From Psammoneis japonica (taxonomy: Eukaryota), in NCBI GenBank assembly GCA_008632985.1, contig QPGO01000015.1:683998-747997 (forward strand): a DNA stretch of 64,000 nucleotides, given 5' to 3'. Positions 30,075 to 59,351 of this stretch are shown here, one piece after another. The notes beneath the pieces were generated by a model. The model saw only the letters and a list, made by a program, of their open reading frames with translations, was not told where the DNA came from and did no database searches. Each line of letters begins with the position of its first letter. Position 1 is the stretch's first letter. The translations under genes were made by a program, and so were the position numbers.

Positions 30075-30477
30075 TTCTTTGGCGGCTAGCCAAGGTAGTC
30101 TGCTTTACCATTCGTGTTCTTCGAGCCTGTGGAGGAGGGGGCGGCAAAAAGCGATGCTTCTCAAAAAACTGCGCCGCCAAGGAGTTTTTAGTCCCGAGTC
30201 TTGATGTCATTATGCTGATCAATCGTGTGAAATTTGTCAAAAATTTGTTCTTATGCTCATGCGCCACCAACTCATGCTTCAGTCGTGGTTTCTTTTCGAG
30301 ATGATGCTTCCGGAAGCGTTCTCATCTACATGTAAAAGACAATGCAACAACGGGAGTCTCAACCCACGCGGTTTCACCGCCAACGCATGTAACAGAGAGC
30401 ATTTCATGGCACTGGTGCAAACTCTCAAACCCCGAGAGAGCTTGTTTGGTTGCTTCTTGTTGCTTTTTGCGGCTGGG

Positions 30478-31520
30478 CCACCTGTCTTGGCTTCGAAAGA
30501 ACCACTCATTTGGACAAGGGTCAGAGTGGCATGTCTGTCTCAGGTGCTGCTTTTTCACTCTGATTGATGATGCAATCACTTTGTTCTTTCAAAAAAGGAA
30601 CAAAGAGCAGAGCAAGAGGTGTGGTTGTTGTGACCAGGATGTGATGAGGCAGGCAAAACAGACCTGAAAAAGCTGTTTGTGTCACCCCACATGTCTTTGA
30701 AGCAGCCAGGATGAAAAGCCAGCTGAAGCTGCTTTGCTTCCACAGACTGCCAGCAGAACTCTGGCTTTGACAAAGATCACACCAGAGAGCCACTGCTGCC
30801 TTTGGCTGTGCTTGTCTGCTTGCAGCTGTTTTGACAGTCGGGGCCTGCCACCACGCAAGAGATGTGCCCAAGAGAGTTGACAACAATCGCAAGCTCTTTG
30901 TGGAAGAATTTGAGTTGAGAGGCAGAATTTGCCAAATTTTCTAGATCTGCCCTGAAGTGCTTCCACATGAGTTTGATGGTGTGTCACACACAGCATCATT
31001 GACAGAGATGACACAAGCGCAAGGGGTTTTGTGGGTCAGGGTGGCAGAGAAACAGAGTGGAAGAAACAAAAAGGGGGTGCAACAAGCCTGAGCAAAAAAC
31101 ATGAGAACAAAGTGCATTGGAAAGAGGAGCATCTTCCTGGCATGAAAAGTGATTTACAAGTGAAGCTGTCATGCTGTGCGTTGTGCAGAGCTGCAGCAGC
31201 AAGGAAGCTGCCGGCGCCAGCTTTGCAGATCTGTCAGTTTTTCAAGTCAACCACAACCAAACTCTGAGATGAGAAATGGGGGTCATCAGGGTGATGCCTC
31301 TGACAATGAGAGCTGCAAAGAACCCTGTTGGTTGCACAGCTGCCTGTGCCAAAACACAAAAAGCTGAAAAACAAGACAAGCTTGCCACCACCTGCCTTGT
31401 CTTCTCTTGTCAACACAAAGTGTGAATCTTTTGATGACAAAGTTTGCAAAACAGCAGGAGAGGAGAAGAAAGAAACAACAAAGAAAGCCAAGTCCTCCAA
31501 TGGCAAAACTGGTGAAGCAC
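30478..31520 (+). pseudogene. Decayed duplicate of FAN1 upstream region and 5' coding sequence (part 1)
   Basis: Aligns by eye to ~37760-38760. Examples: ctgtcttggcttcga, tttgtggaagaatt and ctgtcagtttttcaagtcaacc; translation KLKNKTSLPPPALSSLVNTKCESFD vs KLKNDTNLPPPAASSLVNKKCESLD. Confidence 0.9.
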
Positions 31521-33949
31521 AGCAGAAAGGAGAAGAAAGAAGCAGAGGAAAAAGCTGGGGTTGATGGTTTGACACTCACTGGCCAGGCATCTGCAACATG
31601 TTTTGGTGCTTGCCTTGTTAAGAATGAAACTTGTCAAGAAACAAAATTGTTGCATGTGGGCTGTCTCTGTCCACCAATCTTCGATTTTCTCACTTGTCAA
31701 TTGTGCATTCTCACAAACATTTTAATTTGATTGTGAAACTCACCAACAAACAAAATTGTCACAAACACGCCAACTCTGTCCAGTTGTTAATCATGCATTT
31801 GTGCAAACGTTAAGTCACAAATGATTTGACCATTTTTTGCCTGCGTGGCCCGATTTGCAGTCGGCTGACACACACATTTTTTCACACCACACCACACACC
31901 ACATTGATGCCAACAGCCGCAATGATGTGATTCATGCATTTCAACTCTTCTGATGACTCCCTTTGCTGGTGTCGACTCACCACAGTCACAAAAGGTGTCA
32001 CATGTCTTGGGTGTGTTGTGGGTGGGGGCTTTGTTGAGAAACATCGTTCTCTCATGTTGACAAGAAACACCAAAAAACATGGAATTGACATGACCCATGC
32101 TTTGATGTGTGTTCATTCAATGCATCTCCTCTCTTGTGCACCATTGCTGTCATCTCTTCATCATAGATGCAAAAAGTGTCCCCCATCTTGTTTGTGCTGT
32201 GTGCTTGATTTGTGGTGAGAAATGTTGGTCTCACACTTGTGTGGTCTCGCATCAGCCATTTGTGATTGTTGCTGACCCATGCTTTGATGTTTGTTTGCCC
32301 ATTTTGTTTCTTTGCTCACACTTCTTTTTTCTTGTCTCTTCTTTGTAGTTTCGAAAAGATTGTTTTGTCTTGTGTTTGCTTTTGGTGGGGTCTGTGAAGA
32401 GAAGGATCCATCATGCCAACTGAGGCATGCACCGAAATTTTCTCCTGGCTTTCCCAGCTGTTGTGGCAATGCACTTTTCAACCGAGGTGGTGGGCATGTT
32501 GGAAGCCAAGAACTGGGATCTCAAGCATGTGGAGAGTGCATTTTCTTTGTCAGGTGTCCACTGCCAATGTGGGGAGCACACCTGAGATGGCAGCATCAGT
32601 GATGACCATAAGATCCAGTGCAAGGCAATCAACAAGGCACTCAAGGTTCTGGGCCACAAAGCTTGGAACTGTGGGTGCAAGAGTGGGGAGCAATGCAATG
32701 AAATGACAACAACAATTGAAGTGGCTAAAGAAGCTTCTGGATGCTACAAATTGAAGTGCAAGACGATCATCAAGTGGTTTCAACACTGTCTTCAATTCGG
32801 AGAGACACCGGCCGAAGGAGTGTGGTGCATGATGCTGCCAATGAAAATGAGGAAGCAACAGCTTCAGATGACAGAAGAGTTTGTTTGGCATCACCATTCT
32901 GTTTCACAACTCAATTGGTGTCCAACAGATTGGATGAGTGGGAAAGATGTGTTCTCAGAAGTGAGGACAGTGCATGTGAGAAAGGCACTTGGTGGCACTG
33001 TGCCTGCTGCTCTGCTGGAACTGCTGCTTGGGACTGTGGTGAGGTGGTGTGTTTTCCGCCAAATTGACAACATTGACATTTGTTGGCAGAAACACCCCAT
33101 TCTCCACCCATGGAATGTCGAAGGTGCCAAACAGGGCTTGTGCCGCATGCGTGCTCCTGACACCATCTGATGCCGACGGTTGGCTCAATTGCTGTGACAA
33201 TGGATTGAGTCTGGATGTCAAGTTGGAAGATGTCTCACAAATGACATGGTTTGTCCTGCACAGGACCTGGTTTGCAATTGCCGTCCATCATTTTTGTCCA
33301 TGTGCTGTTGGATTTCCACTGAGCACTGCAGCTGGGTGTCGTGCAGCCTGAACCAGCTTGCTGCTCTCTGCTCCAGCTGGCTGACAGGTGCTTGCTGCAC
33401 AGAGTGAAAGGACAGTGGCTAAAACAGGTCAAGCAACATCTCAGAGCACATGCAGGGCTGCATGTGATGTCAGCCTGACCATTTTTGCAGATGGCGGCAA
33501 TGGGCATTTTGGGATTTGCCGCCTCAGCAAGAGCCCTGCATTGACTGATCGGTCCACATCATCCTGCTTCTTCTTGTTTGACATTTTCTTGACTCTCCAA
33601 AGACATTTTCAAAGGCATCTCCAGTGCTCTTCTTTCTCCATTTTGGCCTGAACCCTGACAATGACTTTGGCAAGCACACCCCCCGCCCAGCACTGCAGGA
33701 AGAGAAGCACTGGGAAGAGCAGGAAGAGTTGCACAGATTTAAACTTGCCAAGGCATTGTCTTTGCATCTCATGAAGCAAGCAACAGCACCACTGCTTGGA
33801 AAGCCATTGCCAGATGACAGAGACCAGAAAAATGTCTCATCTTCTTCCCTCTTGCCATTGCCGCAAATGAAGACAATGGCCAGAGTTTGTCGGCCACACA
33901 TCCTCAGTTCCCAAGGGGTTCACTCTGGTGGCAAGTTTGATGAGATGTC

Positions 33950-35900
33950 TTGCTGGTGTCTCCAGTTGTTGGAGCAACAAACTTGCTGGGGGGGGATGGT
34001 GCATGATGCACAGGCCAGTGCCACTTGAGAAACTAAAATGGAGCATGTGGTGGTGCTCCAGATCATCATCATCACCATCAATGCAAAATGGTTTGAGTTG
34101 CCGCCTGCATGACATGCACCCCAAATGCACTCAGCCTGCATTTGTTGAGTGGGTTCTTGGCCCAAGTGTGGTGTCTTTGCAATCTTGATTTGGGAAGCTG
34201 CAAGCCATGTCTTGGGCAGCAGCAGCAGCCCAAGGCATGATTCCTCCACACAAGAAGATGCCCAGCTTCACAAGGTGTGAAAGCACCGCGCCCACAGATG
34301 TGGCACAAAGAAGGAGGTTCACAGCTGTCTTGGGATGGCATTGGAGGACTCCAGTGGGTCCCAGAGGATGCAACAACAACAATGGTTGGGAAGCAAAGGC
34401 TTTTTCTTGTGTCCACACAGCCCTTTGTCTCTCTGACATGACCGGGCTTCTTGGCCCAGCCGCCACACCTGCAAAAACAAGAAAACCATCTGTGCGACAG
34501 TGCAAGTGCTCTGTTGTCTTGGGGTGGCCTTGGATGACTCAATCGGGTCCCAGAAAATGCAACAACAACAACGGATGGGAAGCAAAGGCCTTGTCTTGTG
34601 TTGGTGCGGCACCTTGTCTCCCTGGCATGACTGGGTTTGGCCCAGCAAAGAACCGTCCTGCTGCAAAAGAAAGACAAGGGAACTGTCTGTGTGACAGTGC
34701 AAGCACTCCATGTTGTCTTGGGACATTTGCAAGAGACTCCATTGGGTCCTCAAGGAGGCAACAACAACAGTGGTTGGGAAGGAAAAGCCTTGTCTGGTTG
34801 TGAGTTTGGTTGCATGTCTTGGTGTCTCTAACTGGAGCAACAGGCTTGCCAAGGGGTGCACGGCACATGAATGGTGCACAGGCCAAGGCCACTCAAGAAA
34901 CTGAAGTGGAGCATGCAGTGGTGGTGCCCCCATGTTCCAGCAAACATTTGCCAAATGCCAAGCCAGATCATCATCATCATTGTCAATGCACATTGGCTTG
35001 AGTTGCTGCCACCTGCATCATGACATGGACCCCAAAGAATGCACTCAGCCTGCATTTGTTGAGTGGGTTCTTGGCCCAACTGTGGTGTTTTTGCACTCTT
35101 GATTTTGGGAGCTGCAACAGCCCCTTGCATGATTCCTCCACACAAGAAGATGCCCAGCAGCACAAGATGTGGAGGCACCAGCCAACCTGCAGAGAAAAGG
35201 GAACCATCTGTGTGATGGTGTGAGCACTCCGTTGTTTCAGGATGGCTTTTGGCAACTCAACACCTGCAAGAAAGACAAGGGAGCCATCTGTGTGACAGTG
35301 CAAGCACTCTGTTGTCTCAGGTTGGCTTTTGGTGGCTCAACCTGCAAGAAAGACAAGGGAGCCATCTGTGTGACAGTGCAAGCACTCAGTTGTCTGGGGA
35401 TGGGCACCACAAGAGACTCTGTTGGGTCCAGGAGGAGGCAACAACAACGGCGGTTCTTGGGAAGGAAAAGCCTTGTCTTGGGCCAGTGCAGCCCCTTTTC
35501 TTTCTGATGTGATCGGCTTGCTTTGGTGACCAAGCCACCATCCCACCTGCAAAGGCAAGGGAGCTTTCTGCAGACAGCGCAAAAGTGCCCAGATGTCTTT
35601 TGCTGGCCTTGGGTGATTCCATTGTGTCCCAGGAGAGCCAACAACAACAACCTTGGTTGGGGAGCAAAGGCTTGTCTTGTGTCAATGTTGCCCCTTTTCT
35701 TTCTGACATGACTGGTGGCTTCTTTGGTCCAGCCAACACACCTGTGCAAAGATCATCATCGAGCCATCTGTGTGAAAGCACAAGTGACCAGTTGTCTTGG
35801 GATGGCTGTGGGAGGAGACTCCATTGGGTGCCAGGGCATGCAACAACAATCATGGGAATTTGGTGCCGGTGCATGAGAAATTCAAGATTTTTGGTTGCAA
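33950..35900. repeat. Degenerate tandem repeat array (~190-bp unit with a (CAA)n core) plus higher-order duplication
   Basis: The unit gttgtcttggg...gactccattgggtcc...caacaacaac..ggttgggaag.aaaggccttgtctt recurs at ~34325, 34513, 34712, 35390, 35600 and 35790. Block ~33955-34280 repeats at ~34820-35170 (shared gcactcagcctgcatttgttgagtgggttcttggcccaa). cctgcaagaaagacaagggagccatctgtgtgacagtgcaagcactc occurs twice, 79 bp apart. Confidence 0.85.
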
Positions 35901-36105
35901 TGGCTGGAGAGTGCTGCGGGCCCAAATTGACATGGTGCGCAGTGGCTTTGTCATTGTGGAGGCAGCAGCAGTGGTGGCAGTTGCTGGGTTTGGACCATTG
36001 GCTGGCACTGCAGCAGCTCCAGCAGCAGAGCCTTGGTTTCTCTGAGAGCTCCTGCTGTCGAGCTCTTGTGGCTGAGATTGAGCTTGAGATTTGCCAGCTC
36101 AACCT

Positions 36106-36222
36106 GCACAGCAAGACTGTGAAAATTTGCATCTTTACAAGAACACATTGACATGATGAAAACTGTGCAGCAAGACTGTGAAAATTTGCATCTCAACAAG
36201 AACACATCAACACAATGAAAGA
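36106..36222. repeat. 59-bp tandem duplication
   Basis: cagcaagactgtgaaaatttgcatct..acaagaacacat..aca..atgaaa appears twice in tandem. Confidence 0.85.
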
Positions 36223-36714
36223 TGAGAAATTGACCGACTGCCAACACACATGTGAAACCTCAATGACTGGATGATTCATCAAGTCATTTCAAATCATTCA
36301 AACCTTCAAAACTGAATGTGAGCATGGAATTTTAAAACAAAATTGTCACTCAAAAATGATGCCAACAGGAATCACCAGGCAGACAGGCTTGACATTGCTG
36401 CAAAAACACGAACCATCATTTCCTCACAAGACACAAAACACAAGGCTCGTCAAACATCGTGGCAGTGACATCAGAAGCAAGGGAAGGCAACAGAAGAGCA
36501 CCAGGGGGGAGGAGGACAGTGCAAAACACAAGGCAAGAGAGAGGCAGGAACTGAGTTGGTGAGTGCATGGAGCTTGGGCAACAATGCAAACAACTGATGC
36601 TTTTGCCAATCTTTCAACTCAGACATGATTTTGATGACATGCGAGGGGAGCCAGAAGGGAAGACGGCCCTGCAGGGGCCACACAAAGGTGGGCAGAAACA
36701 GCGTTTGCACCAAG

Positions 36715-36952
36715 CACATTCAAAACAATGCAAACACAATGCTCTCATCTGTTGCATGCTCTTTTCTCTTCTTTGCAGGCGATGCTTTGGCAAACTGATG
36801 CGAAACACGAAAGAGACATGGTCGCATGCAAAGGTGAGCAAAAGCTCGCTGTTTTTGTCAAGACAAGCCCACTCAAAAAACAAAACACATGCAATGCTCT
36901 GATCTGTTGCAAGCTCTTTTCTCTTCTTTGCAGGAAAAGCTTTGGCAATCTG
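36715..36952. repeat. ~80-bp direct repeat pair
   Basis: caatgctct.atctgttgca.gctcttttctcttctttgcagg...gctttggcaa at ~36737 and ~36892. Confidence 0.8.
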
Positions 36953-37585
36953 GCATGATGAGCAAAAGAGACAAGGTCACGACACAGAACGAACAACGGG
37001 ATTGTGCGTGGCAAGCAAGAGCGGATGCAAGGGGGTCAGCAAAATGAGCAAAGCATCATGCCATCACTGTGGCATGGGAGAACCGGCAGGAGACAGGAAC
37101 AAGCCAAGGAGGGAAGAGCAGGAAACAGGAAGCAAAAACACATTCACACTGCAGAAATGACAAAACACAGCTGGCACAATCACATTGCAAGGAACACACA
37201 GCCAATGCACGAGCATCTTGGTGCTGCAAATGAGTGTTGCAGTTGTCAGAAATGAGCAATGTTGCAAAGCAGTCACAATTGCACCCTTGTTAAGAAGTTT
37301 CATTGACAATTGTTTCCTGCTTGAAAGGTCGCATTAATTGTGAATGCAGCAAACTGAACAATTTCAGGGTCATTGTGGTCGCAATCTTGTGCAAAGATTG
37401 AATGAAGAATTAGAGTCATTTTCATCAAGTGTCAAGTCCTGCTTGGAATGTTGAAACAATTGTTAAAATTGGTTCACACATGATCAATGAGCACTTGTTG
37501 AGAACACAGGATTCTTGACAAGAGCAAAACGAGTTCTGAACAAGAGCCATGACATTTTCCAGACCAGCTTGCTTCTTTGGGCGAT

Positions 37586-37715
37586 CTTGCACGACAGAAT
37601 GTGGAGAACAGGGGCCAACAATGCCAGACTGTGTTGAAAGGCAGGAGGCAACAATCTGAGTGCTGTTCACCACATCTGCCAACTGCATCTGCCAGAGCAG
37701 CAAAAAATCTTGGTT
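37586..37715 (+). pseudogene. Decayed duplicate of FAN1 coding sequence (part 2)
   Basis: Matches ~38819-38937: ttgcacgacagaa..tggaga and caccacatctgccaactgcatctgccagagcagc vs ttgtacgacagaagatggaga and caccacatctgccaattgtatctgccagagcagc. Confidence 0.9.
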
Positions 37716-38284
37716 TGTTGGATGAAAACAAACAACATCTCAGTGCACTCTTTCTCTGGACCACTGTCTTGGCTTCGACCAAACCATTCATCAAGACAAT
37801 GACCCAAACAGCATCTCTCTGTCTCAGCTTCTGTGTTCTTCATTGCAGTGGAGTGCTCCTTCAAAATGATGAATGAAGAGGAGCAAGGTGATGAGGCAGG
37901 GCAGGCAGGCAGCCAGTGCAGATCTCAAGTGTCTGTCTGTCCCCCCATCATGACTTTGAAGCAGCCGGAATGAACAAGCCAGCCGAAGCTGTTGTGCCTG
38001 CTGCCGTGCATGGAGTCGACTGCATCCTGGATGAAAATCACAATTGGCCCTGCCACTCTACCATCTTAGAAAGCAGCTGCCAGCTGCCGCCTTTGGCTGC
38101 GTCTTATCTGCCACAGTTGTTGTGACGGTCACGAGCTATTTGTGGAAGAATTCGAGCTACGGCGGCATTTTTTCCATTTGCCCCCGGGAGTGCATTTTGG
38201 AATTTGCCCAAGATTTGCCCCCCAAAATCTTCGCTCACGGACACAAAATGTTTGCATCGACATACTGTAAATGACAAGGAATTT

Positions 38285-41200
38285 ATGGATCAACTGATGG
38301 AGGAAGGAAACAGAAACAACGACAAGGACGCAACAAGCTCGAATGAAAGACACGAGAACAAAGTACGTCCAAACGAGGGGCATCTTGCTGGCACTAGAAG
38401 TGATTTATCAAGGGACTCGTCATACCGTGCTTCCTACAACCGCAGTAGCGCGGAAACCGGTACCAGCTTCCTACCTGTCAGTTTTTCAAGTCAACCGCAA
38501 TCAAACTCTGAGGTACGAAACGGGGGTAGTCGGTTTGATTCTTCTGACGATGAGCCTGAGATCCTGTTGGTTGTGCAGCCGCCTACGCCGAAACGTCAGA
38601 AACTGAAAAATGACACAAACTTGCCGCCACCTGCCGCATCTTCTCTCGTCAATAAAAAGTGTGAATCTTTGGATAACGAAATTGGCGAAACAGTGGGGGA
38701 GGAGAAGAAAGAAACAGAGAAGAAAACAGACTCTCGGTCAGCAACCACTGATTCGCCTCAGTATAGTTGCCAAACATCCGCCTACGTGCAAAATCTTGCG
38801 GAGATTTGCTACACCATATTGTACGACAGAAGATGGAGAGTAGGCGCCAATAACGCCAGATTGTTGGAATGGGGGAGAGGCGACGATCTAAGCGCTGTGC
38901 ACCACATCTGCCAATTGTATCTGCCAGAGCAGCGAAAGAGCGAAGTCCAACAAAAGAGAGAACGATGCCGATGCCTGCTATGCCGATCAAACAAGGAGAA
39001 GCAGCCACTTCTCGACGAAATTCAGTCCCAAAGTAACGCACAGGGAAAAGGTTTACCAGTATCTATTGAGAATGTCAAGGGGACAGCTGGTGAACTTGAC
39101 GAAATGGCTGATGATGATGTTCGTGCACTCCACCTTTACTGCCGTCTCTTTTATCGGAAGGGTCCCTGGTTTCGCCTCGATGACTTATATGCACGCTATT
39201 ACGCTCCCAAGAATGAGAGAATTCGAGATGGCTCTACATTGTCATCTTCATCTGAAAGCAGCAATGATAGCGCGAATGACGCCACAGCATCGACGGAGTT
39301 CTTCCTGCCAAAGAAAGCAGGAAGAAAGAGCCCAAGTGTGATCGACGTTGAGATAGATGATGAAGTTTATGAGGCCGTCGCCTTGCTGTGTCGTGATGTT
39401 TCTCGCCTTCATTCTCTAGGGATGATTCGATCATTTTGCAGCGAAGAAGAGTGCGGAAAGACGGTTGGTGAGGTGTCGGGCGACGGAAAATGGGCTTTTT
39501 TCACTGCGGAAGAGCGTCGCACAATATTGTCCAAACTTGGCGGCGGGTCCAAAACGTCTGCTACTCACCAATCGAAGCGAACACCTTCAATGCCGGATAA
39601 AGGTGGAGGAAACATGAGCAGGAGGAACGAAAATTTAGTGTGGAGACAAATGCGTCGACAGCACTCCATTGTTGGACAAATCAGCAAGAACGAGGACCGT
39701 CGAGTCCTGTTGCCTGTGAGACGCCACGTTAACGAGTTATTGTATCAGAAGCTTGCCGCAAAAGCGGTTCTCTCTTCCAATTCTGATAACAAGAAATCTG
39801 CATCGATTATTCGGGAAAGAGTGACGGAAGCAAGAACTGCCATTCTTCGCCGCATTGAAGACGACCACATTGGGTTGGACATGTGTATTCGCCTCCGCGA
39901 GGCTCCCCTCCTTAGCTTACGTCGTTTCACTCGATTATATCTTTGCGCGTCACATGGTCCTGGCAATATGCGAGGCGATGGGTCAAATGGGTGGATGAGC
40001 TTGAAGGACCCGCTTGCCTTGCACAAAGATGTGCCAATGCAGAATTTTGTTTCCCCTCCCGGCTCTCATAGGTGGCATAGCATTTCATACCCTGCACTGA
40101 TGCATCGTTTCGGCATGAATACTTGCGCCTTTGCGAATTCCTTTCAGACGTTGCCGATGATAGATGGAAGTTCTCATCAATTCGGACAGGAAGAACACAT
40201 CTATCGGGGGTTACGAACTTCTGATATGGAACGTGTCTTCACCAACCATAGTGACTTTCTTATTTGGGAGCTGTGTGCTGAAATTCGAGCAAATGTCGAC
40301 TATCTCATCGAGGTGAATGATTTAACACATTATCATGCTAGGCGGCAAGCTCGCCAGGGAAATGAAGCATGCGGAGATGATAATAATTCCGGGGTTACGA
40401 ACGAGAGCTCACGCCCGCCTGAAATGTCACCTGCGAGTAACCTATCCATGTCATGCCATGTCGATTTTCTCGACCTACTGACAACAGCTGGAAGGCTAGA
40501 CATGCTGCGGAGCTTGATGGTATGGTGCGACCACGACGAACGCGTTTCGGATTTTGCGGACGTCATTTCTGAAGTTCAGAAAAAAGTAGAAAGCGACGTC
40601 TTGGCGCTTGGTGTCACGGTGAAAGTAGCAAACGAATCTCCTTCAGGGACCACGATTTTGCCTACTGCAGTTTCCGGTTTGTGCACCGAAGATGTTGCAA
40701 GCTGCTTCAAGAACGAATACGAAATGATTTTAGGGGTTGTTGCCGTGGTTTCTATGCATGTTCTGAGTTTTCGACATCGCCGTGTGTCACCGCTCGACGT
40801 TTCATTGAGAGTTGCCAGACCTTGGCTCCGACATTTGTGGTGGGACGGGAATCTGGCTTATGTGCTCTGGGATTGCATCCCAGTTCTGGAGAAGCGAGGA
40901 TACTACGGGCTGGCCTCTCGGGCTCTGGAAGTGCTGCTATTCGGCTCTTTCAAAGACCAACAAACAATAGAGGTTTCTGTCCCAGGCGAAGCTATCCGGC
41001 AAAATATTATGCCACCCTCAGCACCGTATGCCGCACTGCTGATATCCAGAAGAGCCCGTGGTAAAGCCTTTGAACGACTCGTGATTGACTACACGCATAT
41101 TCTTCGGACACGATCCAAAGAAGTGAAACCGAAACACGCGAAAGGTCGCAGAGCTGAGAAACAGACGCAGAAAAAGGTCACCCCGAATCATGTAGCTGCT

Positions 41201-42673
41201 GTGGTGTGCAATGAAATATTGAAGAGTGTAGTTTCTAAGGGTTCCATACCGTTCTCGGCCATAAGATCCCTTGCCAAAAGATTAAAAAGGCCGTTGGATG
41301 AAATTCTTGTAGGAGAGCGGTGTATGGAAGCACTCGACTTGGGCATCCGACTGGACAACCCGATAAGATGGGGCGAGAGGGAACTTTCGACGGACGAGAA
41401 AACCAAAACTAGAGGTTACGAAGATTGGACTCCCGTGACGGATTATGCCGTTGCCAATTCCATTGAGGGCGAGACGTCTGAATTGGGAAAACGATGCAGC
41501 TACGTGGGCTTCGAGGACGAAAACAGCGCTCCTGCTAATCCGGCTTCATTGAACGTTGAGGAGTTGGCGATGGAATTCTATAGAACAGGGAGACTCGGTC
41601 CGGTAGGGCCCAGTGAACCTCGAGGAGGTTGGGTGGGCTGGCACGACGAGGGAGGCCATTTAAGGGCTCTCTTTCGAATCCTTTGTTCCAGCAGTCTCTT
41701 AGGTGTAGACGGTGGTTGCAGCAACCAAACTATGAGCGCTATGATGGCCATAGAGAACGCAACGGTCTTCTTGACACCCTACCAAGGTGCCCCAGGCGAT
41801 TTACACGTGGGTCACGCAATCATGAATGGCACATCCAATACGGAAGACGGTCAAGATAATGGTGAAGTGTTTGTTCGAGGTTTCTATAGACGGCATCAAG
41901 CGAGAATCACCGAGTTTCTTTCCCTGTTGGAGAGGCTGGGAAAAGAAGAGCTTGTTGACCTCGTCTATGAATCTGTTGCAGAAAGGTCAAGGTTTCTAGG
42001 CACAAGAGCTGACAAAGATCCCGCGTTGCAGCGAGACTTCCAAATGATTCGCACTCTTTCAGTGCTCGCTGCCGGTTTTGGCGGCAAACTTCTGTCCGCA
42101 ATGTTTCGGTGCCTTTTATTTGATTACCGCCACTATAGTGGTGGATTGCCGGACTTGTTGCTTGTCCGGGCTCTATATGACGTGGAAGAGGCGCACAATG
42201 ACGAGGAAAGCGCTCTTTCAAACAGGCTTGTTGATTTAGGCGAGTGGGTTGGCGAAGGCTTTTTCAGAGAAAGACAGGAAGAAAAGGAGATGTCGAAAGT
42301 TGCGAGTTTTCTTGTTGACCAGGACGAGGAATTCTTGGGATGCAGCAAAGTGGGTGATTCTGGCGCAGGTCAATCATCCGGGCGATGGGGAGGTGGAAAA
42401 CGCCGACGTGCAATGCAACATCGGGACTCGTCGCAAGAGGATGAGTCTGGAAAATTTTCCACAAGTAATCTGCCCGAGAAGCTAAGTCTCCTCCATGGGA
42501 ATCGGAAAGTTGATGTGCAATGCATGTTTGTTGAAGTGAAGAGCTCCAACGACCGGTTGGATCCGAGGCAAGAAGATTGGTTAAACATTCTTGATAGATT
42601 TGGTAATGCAAGAGTTTGCAAGGTTGGCAGCGGAAAAAAGAAAACCCGAAAGTCTGCTATCAACAAGAAATAA
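38285..42673 (+). CDS. FAN1: Fanconi-associated nuclease 1-like (VRR-NUC domain)
   Basis: Intronless ORF with first in-frame ATG at 38285. Motifs LYCRLFYRKGPWFR, RGKAFERL.ID..H, VEELAMEFY, GW.GWHDEG, DYRHYSGGLPDL and FVEVKSSNDRLDPRQEDW. Confidence 0.92.
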   Translation: MDQLMEEGNRNNDKDATSSNERHENKVRPNEGHLAGTRSDLSRDSSYRASYNRSSAETGTSFLPVSFSSQPQSNSEVRNGGSRFDSSDDEPEILLVVQPPTPKRQKLKNDTNLPPPAASSLVNKKCESLDNEIGETVGEEKKETEKKTDSRSATTDSPQYSCQTSAYVQNLAEICYTILYDRRWRVGANNARLLEWGRGDDLSAVHHICQLYLPEQRKSEVQQKRERCRCLLCRSNKEKQPLLDEIQSQSNAQGKGLPVSIENVKGTAGELDEMADDDVRALHLYCRLFYRKGPWFRLDDLYARYYAPKNERIRDGSTLSSSSESSNDSANDATASTEFFLPKKAGRKSPSVIDVEIDDEVYEAVALLCRDVSRLHSLGMIRSFCSEEECGKTVGEVSGDGKWAFFTAEERRTILSKLGGGSKTSATHQSKRTPSMPDKGGGNMSRRNENLVWRQMRRQHSIVGQISKNEDRRVLLPVRRHVNELLYQKLAAKAVLSSNSDNKKSASIIRERVTEARTAILRRIEDDHIGLDMCIRLREAPLLSLRRFTRLYLCASHGPGNMRGDGSNGWMSLKDPLALHKDVPMQNFVSPPGSHRWHSISYPALMHRFGMNTCAFANSFQTLPMIDGSSHQFGQEEHIYRGLRTSDMERVFTNHSDFLIWELCAEIRANVDYLIEVNDLTHYHARRQARQGNEACGDDNNSGVTNESSRPPEMSPASNLSMSCHVDFLDLLTTAGRLDMLRSLMVWCDHDERVSDFADVISEVQKKVESDVLALGVTVKVANESPSGTTILPTAVSGLCTEDVASCFKNEYEMILGVVAVVSMHVLSFRHRRVSPLDVSLRVARPWLRHLWWDGNLAYVLWDCIPVLEKRGYYGLASRALEVLLFGSFKDQQTIEVSVPGEAIRQNIMPPSAPYAALLISRRARGKAFERLVIDYTHILRTRSKEVKPKHAKGRRAEKQTQKKVTPNHVAAVVCNEILKSVVSKGSIPFSAIRSLAKRLKRPLDEILVGERCMEALDLGIRLDNPIRWGERELSTDEKTKTRGYEDWTPVTDYAVANSIEGETSELGKRCSYVGFEDENSAPANPASLNVEELAMEFYRTGRLGPVGPSEPRGGWVGWHDEGGHLRALFRILCSSSLLGVDGGCSNQTMSAMMAIENATVFLTPYQGAPGDLHVGHAIMNGTSNTEDGQDNGEVFVRGFYRRHQARITEFLSLLERLGKEELVDLVYESVAERSRFLGTRADKDPALQRDFQMIRTLSVLAAGFGGKLLSAMFRCLLFDYRHYSGGLPDLLLVRALYDVEEAHNDEESALSNRLVDLGEWVGEGFFRERQEEKEMSKVASFLVDQDEEFLGCSKVGDSGAGQSSGRWGGGKRRRAMQHRDSSQEDESGKFSTSNLPEKLSLLHGNRKVDVQCMFVEVKSSNDRLDPRQEDWLNILDRFGNARVCKVGSGKKKTRKSAINKK

Positions 42674-42746
42674 AGATAAACTGTAGCTCTCGCAATTTAA
42701 TCTCTTGACATAGAGTACTGGAACTGGGGCGAAGGAGAGTACAGAA

Positions 42747-43817: not shown

Positions 43818-43994
43818 GGTGCTTGATGCGACGCAACGGCGAGCGAGATGTAAGTTCCCCAAAGTTGGAAGTTCGAAGTCGCACGCATGCACAGACCTCA
43901 GACCGATTGCACAGACCGACAGACACACGGACAGAGACCGTTTTTTTCATTTTTCTCCAGATTTTTCTCTCAGTTTTTATGCGGTACAAACACC

Positions 43995-49851: not shown

Positions 49852-50158
49852 CGTTGTTGGCCTATGGGTGTGGCATTTTTTTGTGTTCGAGAATCGGAAG
49901 GGAAACTGGAATTCCATACGTTTGATTGGAACGGCTTACGAAATGACGCGCGACATTTTGCAGTTGCTTTGAACAAAGGATTCAATCACGGATACAGCGA
50001 TGACGACTCCATCTGGCTGTGTCCGTCAAATCGCATCGTGGGTTGACCGTAGATGAGGGTGACCATCCTTGGATTGAGGTAGCAAACACTCACAATTTAA
50101 ACTACATAGAGAAATGTAGATAACGTGAAATACCTTAAATGTCCTAACAACTTCTATT

Positions 50159-51413: not shown

Positions 51414-51681
51414 GGTGGTGGAAATCTCTTGAAGAAGTTAATCGACAATTCTCTTCTTTTATTCTTTCCTTTGATGGTTGGGTTATCGTGTTCTTTTTTT
51501 GTTTTTGCTTCCTCTTTTTGGTTGGCGACGCGAAAAATGCGCGCGAAAAAGCTCACGTGCTTTGCAATACCAACAAAGCGCGTATAGATCGTAGTATGTA
51601 GAATTTGTATTGACTCTACGCCTAGCATGTAAAGCAGTGGTATAGACGCAACCTGTTTCGCGCTGCGCGGCTGAATTGCTG

Positions 51682-52048
51682 TGCACTATGCTCGAAGAAC
51701 GAGTGTAAACGAAAGTAGAATAGTGTACGAAAAGTGGAAATTATAAGATTAAATTTTGCTCTGTGATTTTTGGTTTCTCCGAACGAGTTCTCAATGGCCT
51801 AAAGCTTCTGTGCTGCTTCTACAGACAAAAGGCCTTTCGGAGAATACATTCGTGACAACAGATTGTCCGGACACGATTGCTGTTGACACGCAAGATGTCA
51901 ACATCGTCAATCGATCGTATTTGCAATTCTCGACATCCGATCAACTCTGTGTGATCGTTCTGTCCTTTGCACGCATCCACGACTGTGGTGCGATTGACAC
52001 ATGAATGGTGTGCAATCACAAACATGTGTGTGACAGTCGCACACTGCA
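51682..52048 (-). repeat. 3' LTR
   Basis: Ungapped match to 56040-56406; adjacent to the PPT. Confidence 0.93.
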
Positions 52049-55000
52049 TTCGCCTCCCCAATTGCACATTAGAGTCATTTGTAAGTGGATCATTCGACGG
52101 ACATCGACAGTGTCAACAATGTCTCCACTTTCACTGCATTGTGCCATTGGCAATGACTGTTGTTGTTTTGTACAGGCAACACAGGGCCGTTCCAATTTCC
52201 GAATGTCTTTTGAGAGTGACATTGTTTGTTTCTCACTTAACATGTGCACACATGGAATTACGTCGAGCATTCTCATTGACGTTCTTGTTGACATGAACAC
52301 AAGGACTAATTGTCCTGGAGTGAGTGTTTTTCCTGATGTCGATTGCACATGGCATCGTGCCCAGTGCTTAATGTGTGCTCTTAATTGTGGCGTTCACTTG
52401 CTTGCTTGTGGATTTCATGCAGTTTGGCGGGCTTGCTTTACACGCCACATTGCTCTGCTGCACTGCCACGTTTCACAAGCAACAACAAACGATGGTCAAA
52501 GATGTTGTGACCATTTCGTCTTGATGATCAATCCTGTGATTGTTATGAATTCCATTGTGGATTTTTTTTTGCACTTCAACCATCCATCAGTTGGATTTTA
52601 ATCGTCATTTGGACGTTTCTTTCTGACATGCCGGTGTCATTTTGTCATTCCGAAGGCACTGGTTTCGTGCACTAAGTGGATGAATGTCCATTTTTCTTTT
52701 CTTTTTCTAGATCTTTGGCACATCTCGTGTGTCGACATGATGCACATTTTAATGTCTTGCCTCGTACATTGTACAATACAACCGTACGGGTGTTGTGAGA
52801 TTGTCTTTTGCCAGTGTGAAGTGGATGCGTATAATGTATGCCAATCTGTCACTGTTTTTTCCTAAATCGTCCTTTAAAAAGGCGATTTTATCCTTGTGAC
52901 ATGAGCATTTTTCGATCTCGCTCGCCTCCACGAAAAGTGTTCGTATGATATGTCGCGTCCGACAATTTGGAGGGAATGTCTTTATCCCGTTTTAACGGTA
53001 GGACATTGTCGTAGGATTCAATTTTCTATAGTAAGTCGGCTGATCGCGTCTATCGCGACGATGTTCGCCTTGCCCTCGTTGTATTCTAATTCGGGACTGA
53101 AGTTGTCAACGTATGACTTTGTCCGTTGTGTCTTATGATCCGTGTATGTATAAATCTGTTGGCCAAACAGTATATTTCGGAATTTTATAAGTGTTTTCAC
53201 TATGGACAGAAGTTCTTTTTTCCGTTGTAACATGTGTTGTTGAAATCCGTGTATGATAACAATATAGTTTTTGATTTGATACGCTCCACATTTTCGGAGA
53301 CTTTTCGTTCCGTACTTGTACTTTTGCCGTTTGACCTTTGTTGAGGTGAATTTGGCTAGTATTGTACAGGAGATCGTTGAGACTACATGTCTCGATAATA
53401 GTAACGTATGACAACGAGATGTCGTAGTGTTCTTTACGTTTTTCTCGTGTTGCGATTGCTTAAATCGCCTCCATTTTCTTTGTAATCGATTGCATGTCGT
53501 TACGTATGGAAGTCTTGATAGTTTATTTCAAGTTAAATAGTGAAGGACTTTTGTTGTTAACCTTCTAAGCAACTGTTCTAGTCGTTTGAATGCCGCATTA
53601 AGCTGTTACTTGTACAGGTGATATTTTGAAGTTACTTTTGTCAGGCACAAACGATCACATATAGTCGTTCTGACAACTTCAAACCTGTTATGAGTTCACT
53701 CAAGTGTTGTATAAAAATGTCTGGGGCTCTATAGATTCTCATTGGAAGTCCACAGTGCTCATTTTCTCCCCACGGCATGATTTTCGTGTGAGCACGACGT
53801 GTGCTTTTTTTATTTGACATGGTGGCATTCCATGTTTGAATCAAATAGATTACATATATGAAACGTTCTTGCTTCAACAGTATTTCCTGAACATTGGGTA
53901 AAGGACACACCACCTGTATGAACCTTGTGCTGAGCTTCTGAGTGTCGGATGCGGTCGAACTCGACCTGTTTTCTTTAGACAATGAGTCTCAGAGCGACTC
54001 ATTCAGAGCAACTTCATTCTTAAGACTTCAATCTTTCATAATAGGTCAAACTCCTTTTGATTGGACGCCTCCAAAGACTGTGACAGGAGAAGGTTCTCAC
54101 GCGTCGTGGAATCGCGTCAGATTTTCCACGATGAGATCCACTGATGCTTCCCACACATTCGTCTGAGGAACTTTTCAAAACGATTTCAACCTCTTAAGAA
54201 GAAGATTGAGTTGGTTGTGTTCATTTGGGTTAGATGCATCGCCGTAGTTGTCACTTGATTAAGATCGATGGCGTGACAATGTGAGTCGAGGACCATTGGT
54301 TCCGTCATTGACTCTGTTCACGGCGTCACATTTTTCAATGTGATCGGTTTTCAGCTTGAAAACATCGGCATCGAAGAGTGTGTGAACATTCTTCATAAGG
54401 CAATTGCTTCTTCCCATTAGATTTCTTCATTTGCGTAGTCCAGTGTGACTTGTAGGACTGGACATTAAGTCGCGTCCCATGATCACATCATTTGAACCTG
54501 AAGAAAATTTGGTGTTTTCAACACACACTGTTTGCATGTCAGCATGCCTTAAATTTCGCACAGTGAGAACTGAATTCGGTGTTTACTGTCAGTTGTAAAG
54601 AGCTCACCCTTGGTTTCCCAAGTTTTTGGTGGCGGATTCTTGTGTTCTCAACTTTCGCACGAATTTGCGCAAAATTGTGGTTGACGATGTTCCGTTGTCG
54701 ACAGGAACACGCAGATGCTTTTTTTCTCTCCTTTCCCAAGGAAGTGTTCATATAAATGATGACTCCTGGACCAGTGTGAATTATTTCTGCCTTTTTTCTA
54801 GGCTTCCTAACATCCAGCAAAGCATGTGATTCGTGAATGGACCAAAATTGTTCTTCGGATTCAGTCTGGATCATCCGATCAAATTGGTGTTTTTCTTCAC
54901 TGAGGGCACCAGAATCTGATTCTTTGCCCTTGTGCTCTTTTTCTTTGTTCAAGGAACTCGCTTTGAGCATTTTTTGAACCGCCTGATCAATCATGACGTT

Positions 55001-56039
55001 CATCTCTTTTTTTTTGCGAGCGGCATTTTCGTCATCGCGACGCGACCGCGTGCGATTGCCATTTGAACGGCGCATTTTTGGGTCTCTTTCAGAGTCACCC
55101 TTGCACTCTTTTGCTAGTTCATTTTTAGAATGGCTTCAATCCGTGATGCAGGTATTCTTTTTTCAAAGACAAGACCTTGCATTCACTTTGGATTGTTCTG
55201 GTACCATGCAGGAGACCATTTTTGGAACCAAATTTGGAACCTTTTTTATTTTGGAACCAACTGCGCCATCAGAGCCTGAGTTGACATGTTTTTTCGTCAC
55301 GGACGTCATGAACGACCTTTAGATGACTCAAAACTTAATCAGCTCATCAAGGATGAGTTGCAATGGTTGATTGTTTTGGACAGTAGACTGATGCTGCCAT
55401 CCTTGCGGTGCGAGTGACAGCTGATAAATCAGCGCTCGGTTTCCCGCTAGATTCGACTTAGAATCCATCTGAGGGTCGCACAGACTCTCATCATTGACCT
55501 CTTGGGTCTAACAGAGGCTTTCTTGCTGTCAAGCAGCTCTGGTTTCTTCAGATCGTCTTGAAAATGACAATTCTGATTCTGAAGTGCAATTCTTGGAAAG
55601 ACATGAGACATGAGACTCTTGAGGTACTTTCCAACGGTTCCATCTTGCTCTTGGACTCAAGGCTCGTTGATTCGGTCTCCAAAAACTCTCCAACAGTCTC
55701 TCCTTGCATGCCAGACGCATTTCTCGGACCTGATCGACTCGGAACTTGCATTCTCTGCAACCATGACTTGGTGTAGATTTTTTTGATAATGCGGTGTACT
55801 TGAGAGCCCTTGATCCTTGGGTGCTTGGAACAGACCGCATTAAAGCGAATCCTCTTGTCTGGCAGACGAAAAACAGCGTCCCATCTTGAGGTGCTGCTCG
55901 GCTTGAGCTTCTTCCGCTCGGAAATCGATTCCAGCAGAACTGGTGCGATTCGTTCCTGTTTGTAGAAGAATTTGCAAAGGCACATTAGTTAAAATTTTCA
56001 TTTTCCGTGCTTTTTACCTTCTGTGGTGTGTATGCACAA

Positions 56040-56406
56040 TGCACTGTGCTCGAAGAACGAGTGCAAACGAAAGTAGAACAGTGTGCGAAAAGTGGAAATC
56101 ACAAGATTAAATTTTGCTCTGTGATTTTTGGTTTCTCCGAACGAGTTCTCAATGGCCCAAAGCTTCTGTACTGCTTCTACAGACAAAAGGCCTTTCGGAG
56201 AATATATTCGTGACAACAGATTGTCCGGATACGATTGCTGTTGACACGTAAGATGTCAACATCGTCAATCGATCGTATTTGCAATTCTCGACATCCGATC
56301 AACTCTGTGTGATCGTTCTGTCCTTTGTGCGCATCCACGACTGTGGTGCGATTGACATGTAAATAACATGTAATCACAAATGTGTGCACAACAGTCGCAT
56401 GCTGCA
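56040..56406 (-). repeat. 5' LTR
   Basis: Ungapped match to 51682-52048; upstream of the gag-like region on the minus strand. Confidence 0.93.
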
Positions 56407-56767
56407 GCTGTGACACCTTCGAACCTCCACAGCCAGAATTTTTTTACCACGACATAACCACGGCCGCTAGCGACATCCTCTTTTGATGTTGCCACTGTTC
56501 AACAAGAAGCTTGCTCTCGCCGACACCACTTGCGCTCTCAACAATGGAAACTAAGAGATTTTTGTCGGGTGAGTCACATCCTTTATCGTGCACTTTCCAC
56601 GGGCTCAGGAAGTGTCGGCACCAACCCATTTTTTTCTCTTCAGCTCTCATTGCGGCTCGACCCATCCCAACCTACCCGAAGACGTGTGTCTCCGTTACCG
56701 TCAACAGGAGCCCGTCACCACTGGCGCCTCCATCAGTTCTGGGCTTGCCATGCCCACTGTAGCGACC

Positions 56768-57510
56768 ATGACCATCGACAACCCACATCTTGACATTGTG
56801 CACCGGCCCGAGTTTGACATGATCGACGACAAACCCAAGAACAATTTGTCGCAACTTAGAGGAGAAACGGCTGCAATTGACGTGTCCATTCCTCTTTACA
56901 AGATCCTCCTCGACCCAACAGCGGCAAGGCAAGTGCATGCCTCACCAAAGAAGACACCTGTTGGTCAAGCAGCAAAACTTTTGGTGCAGCGTCACAACAG
57001 ACTTTACAAACAAAACGGCATTGAAGCCGTGCACGTTTTTGACGGCGCTCACAACCCGCTCAAATGGCGAACTGATGCAAAGCGTAGAGCCAGAAAAAGA
57101 CCTGTTGAAGACAGGACATTGTTTCTTCTTCAGTGGAACCGGCCAGAACAAGATAGACTCGAGGTGCTGAACAGGTGGAAAAGCATTGTTTGTCCAAGAG
57201 GTGACATCATGCTCCTGATCAAGAAAGCATTCGACCGAGAAAGAATCCCGTGTGTTCAAGCTGCCATTGAAGCTGAAGCGCAGTGCGTGGAGATGCAAAA
57301 TTCGGGGGTTGTCACACACATAGAATCTGAGGATGGTGACGTGCATGGGCACAACGGTGAGAAATGGATCACCAACTTAAACCCCCACAATGGCGACTGC
57401 TGCATGTTGGTGGCGGCTGATGTCGATGCTCATGAGATGCTGGAGGTGGCCGTTGGAAGGATTTCAAGTGTGCCACTCCTGCTTTTTGTGGTTGTGACTA
57501 CAATGTCAAG
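56768..57510 (+). pseudogene. Transposon-borne Exo1/FEN1/XPG-family 5' nuclease, truncated
   Basis: XPG-N motifs (LSQLRGETAAIDVS, GIEAVHVFDG...PLK..T..KRR) and XPG-I motifs (IPCVQAAIEAEAQC, IESEDGD), with FCGCDY in a shifted frame at ~57484-57501. Confidence 0.8.
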
Positions 57511-58750
57511 CCAGACAGTTTGCCTTTTTCAGAGACGATGGAAGGATGCGCAAATGCGACTGACAAGAAAAAGTTTCTCGCGGACATTGAAACAGGTGAT
57601 TGTCCATGAAGTCCAAATCGAGCATGGACATGCAAAGCCCCACTTTTCCAAGACGAGGCATCCACATCTGTGCTGTCCGTGGAAGCCAGCTGTTGCCTTC
57701 ACGATGCCATGTCGACCCCAAAGTTGCCACCCGACAATCCCGGTGCATTGTCATTGCACATGTCAGCACCTCTTCGACCGCCGTGAATCGCTCCTTTCCC
57801 ATGCCGTGTCTTTCCTCTGCATCAGGAAACCAAACCTTGGTGACACAGCAGATGGTTTCCTTGAATGTGCCTGGTCCCCAAAGATGCTTCGCCATTCTGT
57901 CATGATCCTCACGCCACTTGCCGCTCGTCAGATTCTCCCTGCTCAGTCCACCCATCGCTTCAATCTCATCCTCCCGCTCCAAGCACACTTTCAACTTTTG
58001 AGCCTTGTCTGCCAGCTCTGACGATGCTTTGTCGGCTCTTTTCAATGCAATTTGAAGCAACTCATTCACACGCTCAAGCTCCACTCGCAACCTGACATTC
58101 TCCTTTCCCGCTCCGTCTGGATCAAATGCGGCGTTCCTCTGTGCTGCTGCAACTTTTCGGACTGTTGGCGGTGGACGAGGCAAGTCTCTTGCATGGTCTT
58201 CCTCATCAAGATAAACTCCAATGGGGTCCAATGATGCGCGGGCTGACTTAGCATCTCGCTGACAATCTTTCTTGGTGCAGTTCGGCGCCGGGCAGTGTGA
58301 CATTTTTCCGTTGCTCCGATCTCTTGCGTCACTTTTGTGAAAGCACAGCAATTCTCACGTCTCACAGTCCACATTTTCCAAAGGACCTTTGTTGTCCTCT
58401 TTTAAAACAGCAGGATGGAAATGATTGAATCCGATGTGTTCATAATTGCCAGCAGGTTCCGGTGGCACACAAGAGTTCCCAACAAGATGCCGATGCGCCA
58501 CGACTCTCATGTTGTTGTCACTTGCATTGCCGCTTCCATGTGGCCTTCTTTTGCTGGCGCAGGGAAGGTGGCAGCAACCACACCTTTTTTTGTCACCAGC
58601 ATCAATGAAGTCCTTTGTGCTCTGCTTGCACTCTTCCTTGTCACGGCAGATGCAAGGGCAGAGGGTAGAGTCGCACACCTTTGTGATGGTTTCTCTGGGG
58701 ATCTCGCTTGCGTTTGGGAGACGCCGCCGCAGATGATTCTTCTGTCATTG
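57506..58750 (-). pseudogene. N-terminal part of an ISL2EU/Harbinger-like transposase (Cys/His zinc-binding region, coiled coil, HTH); catalytic core absent
   Basis: Starts just inside the right TIR. Cys-rich segment ending HFH (THAP-like), coiled coil, then FTAVEEVLTCAMTMHRD...LG..W...W.PRL resembling the HTH that precedes DDE_Tnp_4 domains. Frameshifted. Confidence 0.55.
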
Positions 58751-59351
58751 TTGCAGCAGGCAGAGGAACGCCAAGTCTGACAGATGCACCAGTGGTGACG
58801 GGCTCCTTTTGACGGTAATGGAGACACACGTCTTCGAGTGGGGTGTGATGGGTTGAGCTGCAGCGGGAGCTGAAGAGGAAAAAATGGGTCAGTGCCGATG
58901 ATTCCTGAGCCCGTGGAAAGCGCACGATAAAGGACACGACTCACCCAAAATGAGGCTCTTAGCATCTGTTGTTAAGAGCGCAAGTGGTGTCGGGGAGAGT
59001 AACCTTCTTGTTGCACAGTGGTGATGTCAACAGAGGAGGTCGTCAGAGGCCGTGGTTTTGTCGTGGTAAAAAAATTCTGGCTCCGGAGGGTCACAGCAAT
59101 TCAGCGTCCGGGTTCCGTCTATGGAGAGACGATCAAAGGAATTGGGAATTTCACCTCTCCGCTCTTGTTTGAAACATGCATCCGTCCCGAGCGAGCTGAA
59201 ACTCCAAACTCCATCCGACAATACAGCATAGCCGACAAAACAAGAATCCAGGGAAAAAATGAGAGCCACCCAAAACATTTGCGAGTGAATCAGTTTGCTC
59301 CAGTTTCTACTCTCTAGAGTAGAGAGTAGAGCCCTACTACTAGAGAAGACC

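Follow-up and report, generated by a model that had tools for sequence, protein, structure and literature searches.

Recently, Mettrop et al. described a hypermutation of TpA to TpG or CpA in the giant-virus and virophage DNA integrated in the genome of the chlorarachniophyte Bigelowiella natans (bioRxiv 10.64898/2026.01.13.699255). In mutation-accumulation lines of this rhizarian alga, two integrated viral regions received 231 of the 302 new single-nucleotide mutations; with one exception these 231 were A->G or T->C, the A->G and T->C changes all lay at TpA, and the rate exceeded the background about 1000-fold, an increase confined to some of the lines (bioRxiv 10.64898/2026.01.13.699255). 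The preprint (April 2026) also reports 324 coding sequences of low TpA content that are enriched in reverse-transcriptase and DDE transposase domains, and proposes ADAT2 as the enzyme, its main text mentioning neither diatoms nor CpG (bioRxiv 10.64898/2026.01.13.699255). Here we analyze a 64-kb window, i.e. the whole stretch from position 683,998 to 747,997 of contig QPGO01000015.1 of the diatom Psammoneis japonica (assembly GCA_008632985.1), in which two blocks bear the same signature: block 1 (30391..38058), which adjoins a FAN1-like gene and contains a dead copy of its 5' part, and block 2, formed by a long terminal repeat (LTR) retrotransposon (51682..56406) and an inverted-repeat element (56421..59092). 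The window outside the two blocks is called the host below. An initial annotation of this DNA had proposed a new genome-defence system for which no described pathway was known; the novelty has since been overtaken by the B. natans preprint, and our finding extends a signature of that type to diatoms rather than being unprecedented. The signature has been described once before, in that 2026 preprint, and in the literature searched, including two diatom transposon papers in which the relevant terms were looked up, we found no report of it in diatoms.

Several better-known processes share individual features with the one recorded here. Fungal repeat-induced point mutation (RIP) depends on duplication and mutates both copies. 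Like RIP, the diatom process acts in place through dinucleotide-specific transitions, degrades mobile DNA and can reach adjoining unique sequence. However, RIP changes CpA to TpA and enriches TA, whereas here the observed/expected ratio (o/e) of TA falls to 0.04 and CA and TG are enriched, so that the process does run opposite to RIP, as the initial annotation had stated. Furthermore, RIP makes stop codons, which TA->TG/CA cannot do, and, unlike in RIP, the live duplicate of the FAN1-like gene is spared and identical LTR stretches are mutated differently. The APOBEC enzymes change C to U on single strands and leave strand-coordinated runs, and the ADAR enzymes act on double-stranded RNA; the likeness to these systems lies in their deaminase-driven hypermutation of mobile and viral nucleic acids and in the 5' U favoured by ADAR. 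In contrast, here it is chromosomal DNA that is changed, after integration, on both strands and without strand-coordinated runs. Finally, diatom LTR retrotransposons are CpG-methylated (PMC2806351), and CpG decay likewise converts a palindromic pyrimidine-purine step to TG/CA and accounts for the loss of CG in block 1 and in the inverted-repeat element, but it cannot remove TA, which is removed here.

Block 1, near TA-free and CG-poor, lies between two genes that point apart. Direct counts over its 7668 bp gave 21 TA, 91 CG, 862 TG and 846 CA, in exact agreement with an earlier count by eye of ~21 TA across ~7.6 kb. The o/e is 0.04 for TA and 0.20 for CG, as against 0.57 and 1.01 in the rest of the window, and 1.79 each for TG and CA, as against 1.13-1.15. 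At the host o/e, 289.5 TA and 450.9 CG would be expected in block 1; the combined TA and CG deficit (628.4) is nearly equal to the surplus of TG and CA (623.5), indicating that both palindromic pyrimidine-purine steps have been turned into TG/CA. All 29 of the 500-bp windows within block 1 have a TA o/e of at most 0.11 and a TG/CA value of at least 1.59, and lie beyond the host range on both measures (29/29), the 190 host windows having a minimum TA o/e of 0.27 and a maximum TG/CA of 1.47. Windows with this signature start at 30251-37751, 51751-52251, 54251-54501 and 56501-58501 and nowhere else in the window. Hence, of two TA-stripped blocks amid spared host genes, as originally perceived, block 1 is nearly complete, while block 2 is depleted but uneven. 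The host DNA outside the blocks is itself moderately low in TA (0.57), with a CG o/e of ~1.0.

The edges of block 1 are sharp: TA at host density ends at 30390 and resumes at 38059, and there is no TA at all between 37464 and 38059. The density of CG is restored from 37966, ~90 bp ahead of TA, and at both edges the TA-free zone overshoots the CG-poor zone by ~100 bp (30391-30494 and 37966-38058). These strips hold 0 TA, with ~4 and 3.5 expected, together with 2 and 4 CG, and the differing extents suggest that TA loss and CpG loss have separate footprints.

The cleanest evidence for the direction of change at TpA is the pair of 367-bp LTRs of the retrotransposon (5' LTR, 51682..52048; 3' LTR, 56040..56406; both on the plus strand). 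They align without gaps and with 29 mismatch columns: 14 of TA against TG or CA, 14 (amounting to 7 steps) of TG against CA and 1 other transition. Thus, 28 of the 29 columns fall at TA steps, all 29 differences are transitions with 0 transversions, and all 21 CpGs are identical in the two LTRs. Where TG in one copy faces CA in the other, the ancestral step can only have been TA or CG, and as no CpG is singly changed it was TA. At least 26 ancestral TA steps are implied: 5 persist in both LTRs, 14 persist in one of them, and at 7 one LTR has TG where the other has CA; counted by copy, 28 of 52 TpA steps have changed as against 0 of 42 CpGs. The resulting ratio of the rate at TpA to that at other sites is ~420 (28/52 versus 1 change in 2 x 273 sites), a figure that is rough because its denominator is one event. 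The process is accordingly far faster at TpA than CpG decay, which cannot explain the loss of TA. The outcomes, 12 TG and 16 CA, are interleaved, so both strands were affected within the same stretch, and since LTRs are identical at integration the changes arose on chromosomal DNA after insertion.

This last point bears on two alternatives. One is that A-to-I hyperediting, by enzymes such as ADAR or ADAT, altered transposon transcripts that were then reverse transcribed and inserted. Hyperedited retroelement copies are known in animals, and the preference of ADAR for a 5' U would suit the TpA context. The Discussion of the B. natans preprint makes the point about ADAR as well (bioRxiv 10.64898/2026.01.13.699255). 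Nevertheless, 21 TA steps distinguish the two LTRs, which were identical at integration; mutation extends to a gene fragment that is not mobile and to unique spacer; both strands are equally affected; and the inverted-repeat element, whose ends are of the kind usual in transposons moving as DNA, is also depleted. Editing of RNA before integration is excluded by the LTR pair, and such editing appears very improbable as the source of the signature. The other alternative holds that the foreign DNA had avoided TA and CG from the outset, or that TA was selected against. Many viruses and some mobile elements do avoid UpA and CpG. However, a host-gene copy and host spacer inside the block are just as depleted, the LTRs diverged at TA after insertion, and the dead, fragmented sequence offers no obvious selection against TA, so that an origin in composition or selection is scarcely credible.

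The second comparison is provided by the FAN1-like gene at the right edge of block 1. Its live open reading frame (ORF) of 1515 amino acids (38126..42673, plus strand) encodes a VRR-NUC domain (PF08774, E = 5.8e-11), lies outside block 1, is normal in TA and CG content and served as the unmutated reference. The promoter and the first ~800 bp of its coding sequence have been tandemly duplicated, and the upstream copy is broken by a 6.1-kb repeat insertion. The first part of this dead copy (30482..31486, plus strand), covering the promoter and 5' coding region, matches 37764-38725 with 75-83% identity, and the second (37584..37705, plus strand) matches 38816-38937 of FAN1 with 80% identity. Over 516 aligned bases, all taken from where the live copy is outside block 1, the 18 TA steps of live FAN1 appear in the dead copy as 1 TA, 6 TG, 6 CA and 5 other steps, and its 30 CG steps as 2 CG and 23 TG or CA. 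Among A/T bases, transitions are seen at 14 of the 36 within TpA and at 19 of the 215 outside it (odds ratio 6.6, p = 1.7e-5); among C/G bases, they are seen at 23 of the 60 within CpG and at 20 of the 185 outside it. The comparison supports the direction of change, yet it is noisy because of a background divergence of ~20%.

Thus, these two of the three comparisons on which the initial annotation had relied for the direction TA->TG/CA agree with one another, the LTR pair through 28 TpA-type columns in 29 without a transversion and FAN1 through 12 of 18 TA steps that appear as TG or CA; the picture of A:T->G:C change at TpA, on both strands, inside two repeat-bearing blocks and without effect in the flanking genes is borne out, and the insufficiency of CpG methylation decay rests on the 28/52 TpA as against 0/42 CpG copies changed in the LTRs. 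The balance of the strands is apparent throughout, with TG:CA ratios of 12:16 in the LTRs, 6:6 in FAN1 and 862:846 in block 1.

A third line of evidence, the replacement of Tyr by His or Cys in conserved transposon motifs, is to be read against the genetic code. TA is present in every Tyr codon, and TA->TG/CA creates no stop codon in any frame, TAA giving TGA or CAA and TAG giving TGG or CAG. The inverted-repeat element (TA o/e 0.17, CG o/e 0.73), delimited by 339-bp inverted repeats at 56421-56759 and 58754-59092, has as its sole recognizable gene an XPG/FEN1-like nuclease ORF of 482 amino acids (56573..58021, plus strand; XPG_I, E = 1.1e-10; XPG_N, E = 3.6e-8), which starts inside the left repeat; we know of no transposon class with such a nuclease. 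Its Tyr content of 0.6% is the lowest among the 151 family members compared (median 2.75%), whereas His (6.0% versus a median of 2.25%) and Cys (3.7% versus 1.92%) are raised. The five alignment columns in which Tyr is the majority residue show one each of Tyr, Cys (TGT), His (CAC), Leu and Ala in this ORF, and further instances of His or Cys opposite Tyr are visible in the family alignment. No YXDD-type motif, nor an HXDD or CXDD derivative of one, was found in the six frames of the LTR and inverted-repeat elements. The XPG-like ORF thus agrees with the third line of evidence, but weakly and in small numbers.

The full HMMER protein scan retrieved 160 relatives of the XPG-like ORF, while a word-based homologue search with it returned no match. 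In metagenome contigs there are four distant loci (L001-L004) with 27-32% identity, 22-40% GC and normal TA, which say nothing about diatoms. Comparison of the ORF with unmutated members of its family lends thin support to the polarity TA->TG/CA. In block 1 the same codon arithmetic is visible in the stop trinucleotides, with TAA at 3.4 per kb (host, 16.0), TAG at 1.3 (host, 16.6) and TGA at 45.6 (host, 38.2). Owing to this scarcity of TAA and TAG, long open frames abound on both strands, 51 of them being of at least 90 amino acids.

That the assembled letters are real is indicated by X1, the one public sequencing run that contains the stretch; it comes from one study, and no RNA run was listed as containing the stretch. 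Its contigs, put together by a different assembler from exact words at a depth of ~60, match 29400-31729 and 37535-39400 with 0 other letters, spanning both edges of block 1 and running through the dead gene copy. A contig of another run, X2, spans 38227-39400, again with 0 other letters; stretches of block 1 that X2 leaves uncovered carry no weight in the argument. The concern addressed here, which the initial annotation had raised, is that modified bases were miscalled (5-methylcytosine as T, a modified A as G) and carried into the consensus. Long-read base-callers do err systematically at methylated motifs. Word-exact contigs at such a depth are not what miscalls would give, so that an artefact is unlikely on this check, although X1 may be from the same sample as the assembly. 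Moreover, miscalls on the two strands of a palindromic step would conflict and be expected to leave a mixed consensus in place of clean TG or CA; the dead copy also has indels and ~20% other divergence, and the XPG-like ORF carries a matching shift in its amino acids. Taken together, we consider a base-calling origin highly improbable.

The distribution of the changes shows that targeting follows position and not homology, since both the LTR stretches and the FAN1 copies differ in their fate by location. Among the changes confined to one LTR, the 7 that fall at LTR positions 6-119 all belong to the 3' LTR and the 7 that fall at positions 130-332 all belong to the 5' LTR, a split with P = 2/3432 by arithmetic from the list of changes. 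In the 5' LTR the first 119 bp escaped and the sequence from position 130 on is mutated, whereas in the 3' LTR the first 119 bp and the last 80 bp are mutated and the middle is largely spared. The spared start of the 5' LTR sits at the outer edge of block 2 beside a gene, and its identical counterpart in the 3' LTR, which lies well within the block, is mutated. Likewise, the TA-free zone of block 1 takes in a non-repeated spacer and ~300 bp upstream of live FAN1, i.e. the upstream part of the live unit itself (37764..38058, plus strand; no TA), while the live duplicate of the 5' part of FAN1 is normal from 38059 on. These observations contradict the description of the process as repeat-restricted: unique spacer is mutated, a live duplicate is spared and identical LTR stretches differ. 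The targets are transposons together with the host fragments that they enclose. Each block occupies a gap that has a gene on the minus strand as its left-hand neighbour and one on the plus strand as its right-hand neighbour, and the gene to the left of block 1 is attested by a spliced X2 contig with its joint at 29569/29693. A domain-wide state such as silent chromatin would fit this positional targeting. The process is in-place, DNA-level, TpA-exclusive, two-stranded, patchy and position-dependent.

The changes are clustered in patches of ~0.1-1 kb, as is best seen in the LTR retrotransposon, which is partly hypermutated (TA o/e 0.43, CG o/e 0.99). A patch of ~1 kb in it (~52750..53735) is untouched, with one TA per ~12 bp, or 15-21 TA per 250 bp as against 2-9 in the remaining interior of the element, and both of its sides are depleted. 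This patch includes the sole recognizable domain of the element, an RNase H remnant (53018-53527, minus strand; PF17917, E = 9.8e-6), and could be either a protected region or one that has simply not yet been reached.

Patchiness is also what one would expect of error-prone patch synthesis, in which a polymerase of the eta or iota type would place G opposite a template T at TA during repair, triggered by repeated repair of methylated or damaged silent DNA. The errors of polymerase eta favour A in the context WA (W being A or T) and are mostly A->G, and polymerase iota inserts G opposite T. However, a WA preference should also erode AA and TT, and no such erosion is seen in block 1 (o/e 1.23 and 1.27; host, 1.15 and 1.14), which disfavours polymerases of the WA type. 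In the LTRs, 28 of the 29 mismatch columns are at TA and the remaining one is a transition, whereas the errors of these polymerases include A->T and A->C as well, and 0 transversions are present. The LTR CpGs are intact, so that repair triggered by deamination is not evident there. This alternative is therefore quite unlikely.

The steps that survive and the sites around them provide further information on the agent. TTAA makes up 9 of the 21 surviving TA of block 1 as against 3.3% of host TA (P = 9.5e-9); another 8 of the 21 have a T before or an A after, and 4 have neither, a class that accounts for 61% of TA in the host. Of all TA, TTAA accounts for 3.3% in host DNA; its share is higher in the inverted-repeat element (11%) and the LTR element (13%), and highest in block 1 (43%). 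Thus, TA without a flanking T or A is lost fastest and TTAA slowest, and this flank-dependent order gives a testable fingerprint of the agent. Strand-coordinated runs of TG or CA were looked for and none were found beyond the host level (z = -1.8; host segments -0.3 to -3.1). A preferential loss of TCG was not seen either, TCG being 26 of the 91 surviving CG in block 1 as against 32.5% in the host.

On the chemistry, the restriction to transitions and the near-complete conversion would point to a fully miscoding base rather than a route through abasic sites, and the deamination of adenine is, judged from the mutational pattern, most likely. The competing suggestion is that an oxygenase of the TET/JBP type hydroxylates T at TpA in silent DNA, the product (5-hydroxymethyluracil, 5-formyluracil or a derivative resembling base J) sometimes pairing with G and giving T->C, seen as A->G on the opposite strand. 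Being symmetric, the data fit T->C and A->G at TpA equally. In kinetoplastids, silent repeats are marked by modified thymine, and in dinoflagellates 5-hydroxymethyluracil reportedly favours TpA, a claim on which our literature search found no paper. Yet modified thymines miscode only weakly, and their removal by glycosylases should also yield transversions, while there are 0 transversions among the 29 LTR differences. Further, telomeric base J occurs at the second T of TTA, whereas T-TA is spared here. A modified thymine is thus unlikely to be the agent.

As for a deaminase, amphioxus BjADAT2 deaminates both A and C in DNA, with a preference for GAA in the case of A and TCG in the case of C, and favours hairpin or single-stranded substrates, and base editors are described as broadly context-tolerant for A (PMC10354150). 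In contrast, the context here is strictly TpA and TCG is not preferentially lost. The earlier supposition that TadA-type deaminases prefer a 5' T is hence not upheld for adenine in DNA, where the natural ADAT2 tested preferred GAA (PMC10354150).

The loss of CpG is graded: the young LTR element shows none, the inverted-repeat element a moderate amount and block 1 a strong one, and the loss looks like a separate, slower process. The explanation that we prefer joins an in-place process at TpA, the chemistry of adenine deamination, recruitment by chromatin and a separate decay of CpG, and we give this combination a probability of roughly 0.55. According to it, the adenine in TpA of chromosomal DNA would be deaminated to hypoxanthine and then copied as G, by an enzyme that would recognize the TpA step and might be drawn to silent or foreign DNA by its chromatin state and not by repetition itself. 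In the older blocks, the loss of CpG would reflect the deamination of 5-methylcytosine in methylated transposons. A silencing effect, if any, would come about through missense changes, above all in Tyr codons, and through the loss of TA-containing signals; that the process serves defence at all is something that we infer.

A number of points weigh against this explanation. Sequence by its nature cannot tell whether A->G or, on the opposite strand, T->C took place, and we know of no natural DNA-adenine deaminase that prefers TpA. When acting on A, the only natural ADAT2 assayed with DNA favoured GAA (PMC10354150). The LTR rate ratio hangs on one single change outside TpA, and in the FAN1 comparison the ~20% of other divergence is accompanied by transitions at 19 of 215 A/T bases outside TpA. 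The shift from Tyr to His and Cys is thin, with two of the five Tyr-majority columns occupied by other residues and one unchanged, and X1, being possibly the assembly's own sample, is not fully independent of it.

Seen beside B. natans, as described in the preprint, the resemblance is extensive: in both cases the changes are almost only A->G and T->C, at TpA, on both strands, in sharply bounded foreign regions and in a patchy or episodic manner, and the loss of TpA is coupled to a gain of CpA and TpG, with a rate raised ~1000 times there and, roughly, ~420 times here. The differences concern the host, a diatom (Stramenopiles) as opposed to a chlorarachniophyte (Rhizaria), and the targets, which here are an LTR retrotransposon, an inverted-repeat element, a high-copy repeat and a dead host-gene fragment and there are viruses. 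The process is nearly saturated here, with an o/e of 0.04 as against a Rho of 0.45 in the nucleocytoplasmic large DNA virus region there, and it is accompanied in the older blocks by CpG decay, whereas CpG goes unmentioned in the main text of the preprint. Finally, it is known here from the sequence record and there from de novo mutations. The same signature in a diatom and a rhizarian is therefore not a quirk of one species; by analogy, the shared signature suggests a widespread DNA-editing process aimed at foreign DNA, one that may be present across the large group that includes diatoms and rhizarians and that affects transposons and the host DNA enclosed with them as well as viruses.

A more far-reaching reading, which we advance tentatively and with the odds against it, is that diatoms and chlorarachniophytes share an old, chromatin-guided DNA-editing defence with a TpA-specific DNA adenine deaminase. 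Such a system would be active in bursts, would be directed at silent or foreign DNA without depending on cytosine methylation, and would inactivate elements through the loss of Tyr codons and TA signals and not by introducing stops. To our knowledge, a natural deaminase specific for chromosomal adenine in TpA is a type of enzyme not known in nature; if real, it would be a new effector of genome defence and might find use in base editing. The enzyme could be sought by comparing the gene sets of signature-bearing and signature-free lineages, and might be testable in diatoms that can be genetically modified. The near-saturated blocks together with the LTR pair amount to a clean natural record of before and after. 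The signature also carries a warning for annotation, in that transposon and viral proteins so affected are poor in Tyr and rich in His and Cys, lack TAA and TAG stops and are hard to recognize.

The host genes are closest to those of pennate diatoms in the homology search, the best named matches, from Synedra-like, Bacillariaceae, Pseudo-nitzschia, Seminavis, Fragilariopsis and Fistulifera sequences, having 60-76% identity. Within block 1, the insertion that splits the dead FAN1 copy (31487..37583) is a high-copy repeat, the repeated portion being ~31730-37534; in the X1 contigs the summed word depth climbs from ~60 to 340-3000 inside it. It contains an irregular array of internal repeats at 34058-35850, with units of 64-290 bp and 66-94% identity, and several long frames over this array are open only through the loss of TAA and TAG. 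None of 39 ORF pieces of the insertion tested had a Pfam match above the curated cut-off, and a search for terminal repeats found nothing beyond a 12-bp direct repeat. This word, CCTTGTTAAGAA, is present near both ends of the insertion (31613-31624 and 37285-37296), each copy including one surviving TTAA. The chance expectation of such a shared word between the end segments is ~0.02, and the pair could be a target-site duplication or an end motif.

Copies of the block 1 repeat in the X1 contigs, when aligned with the window, differ from it mainly by transitions (383 places, as against 108 with transversions), and TG is opposed to CA among the copies at 35999/36000, 36253/36254 and 37350/37351 (among the 40 of these 491 differences that were listed). 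Between the internal repeats of block 1, TG against CA is likewise the commonest adjacent double mismatch, with 16 cases as against 5 for the next class. Finally, short X2 contigs match 31992-32400 loosely, and the abundance of TA and CG in their unmatched ends is a hint that a relative of the repeat, unmutated and possibly expressed, exists elsewhere in the genome.

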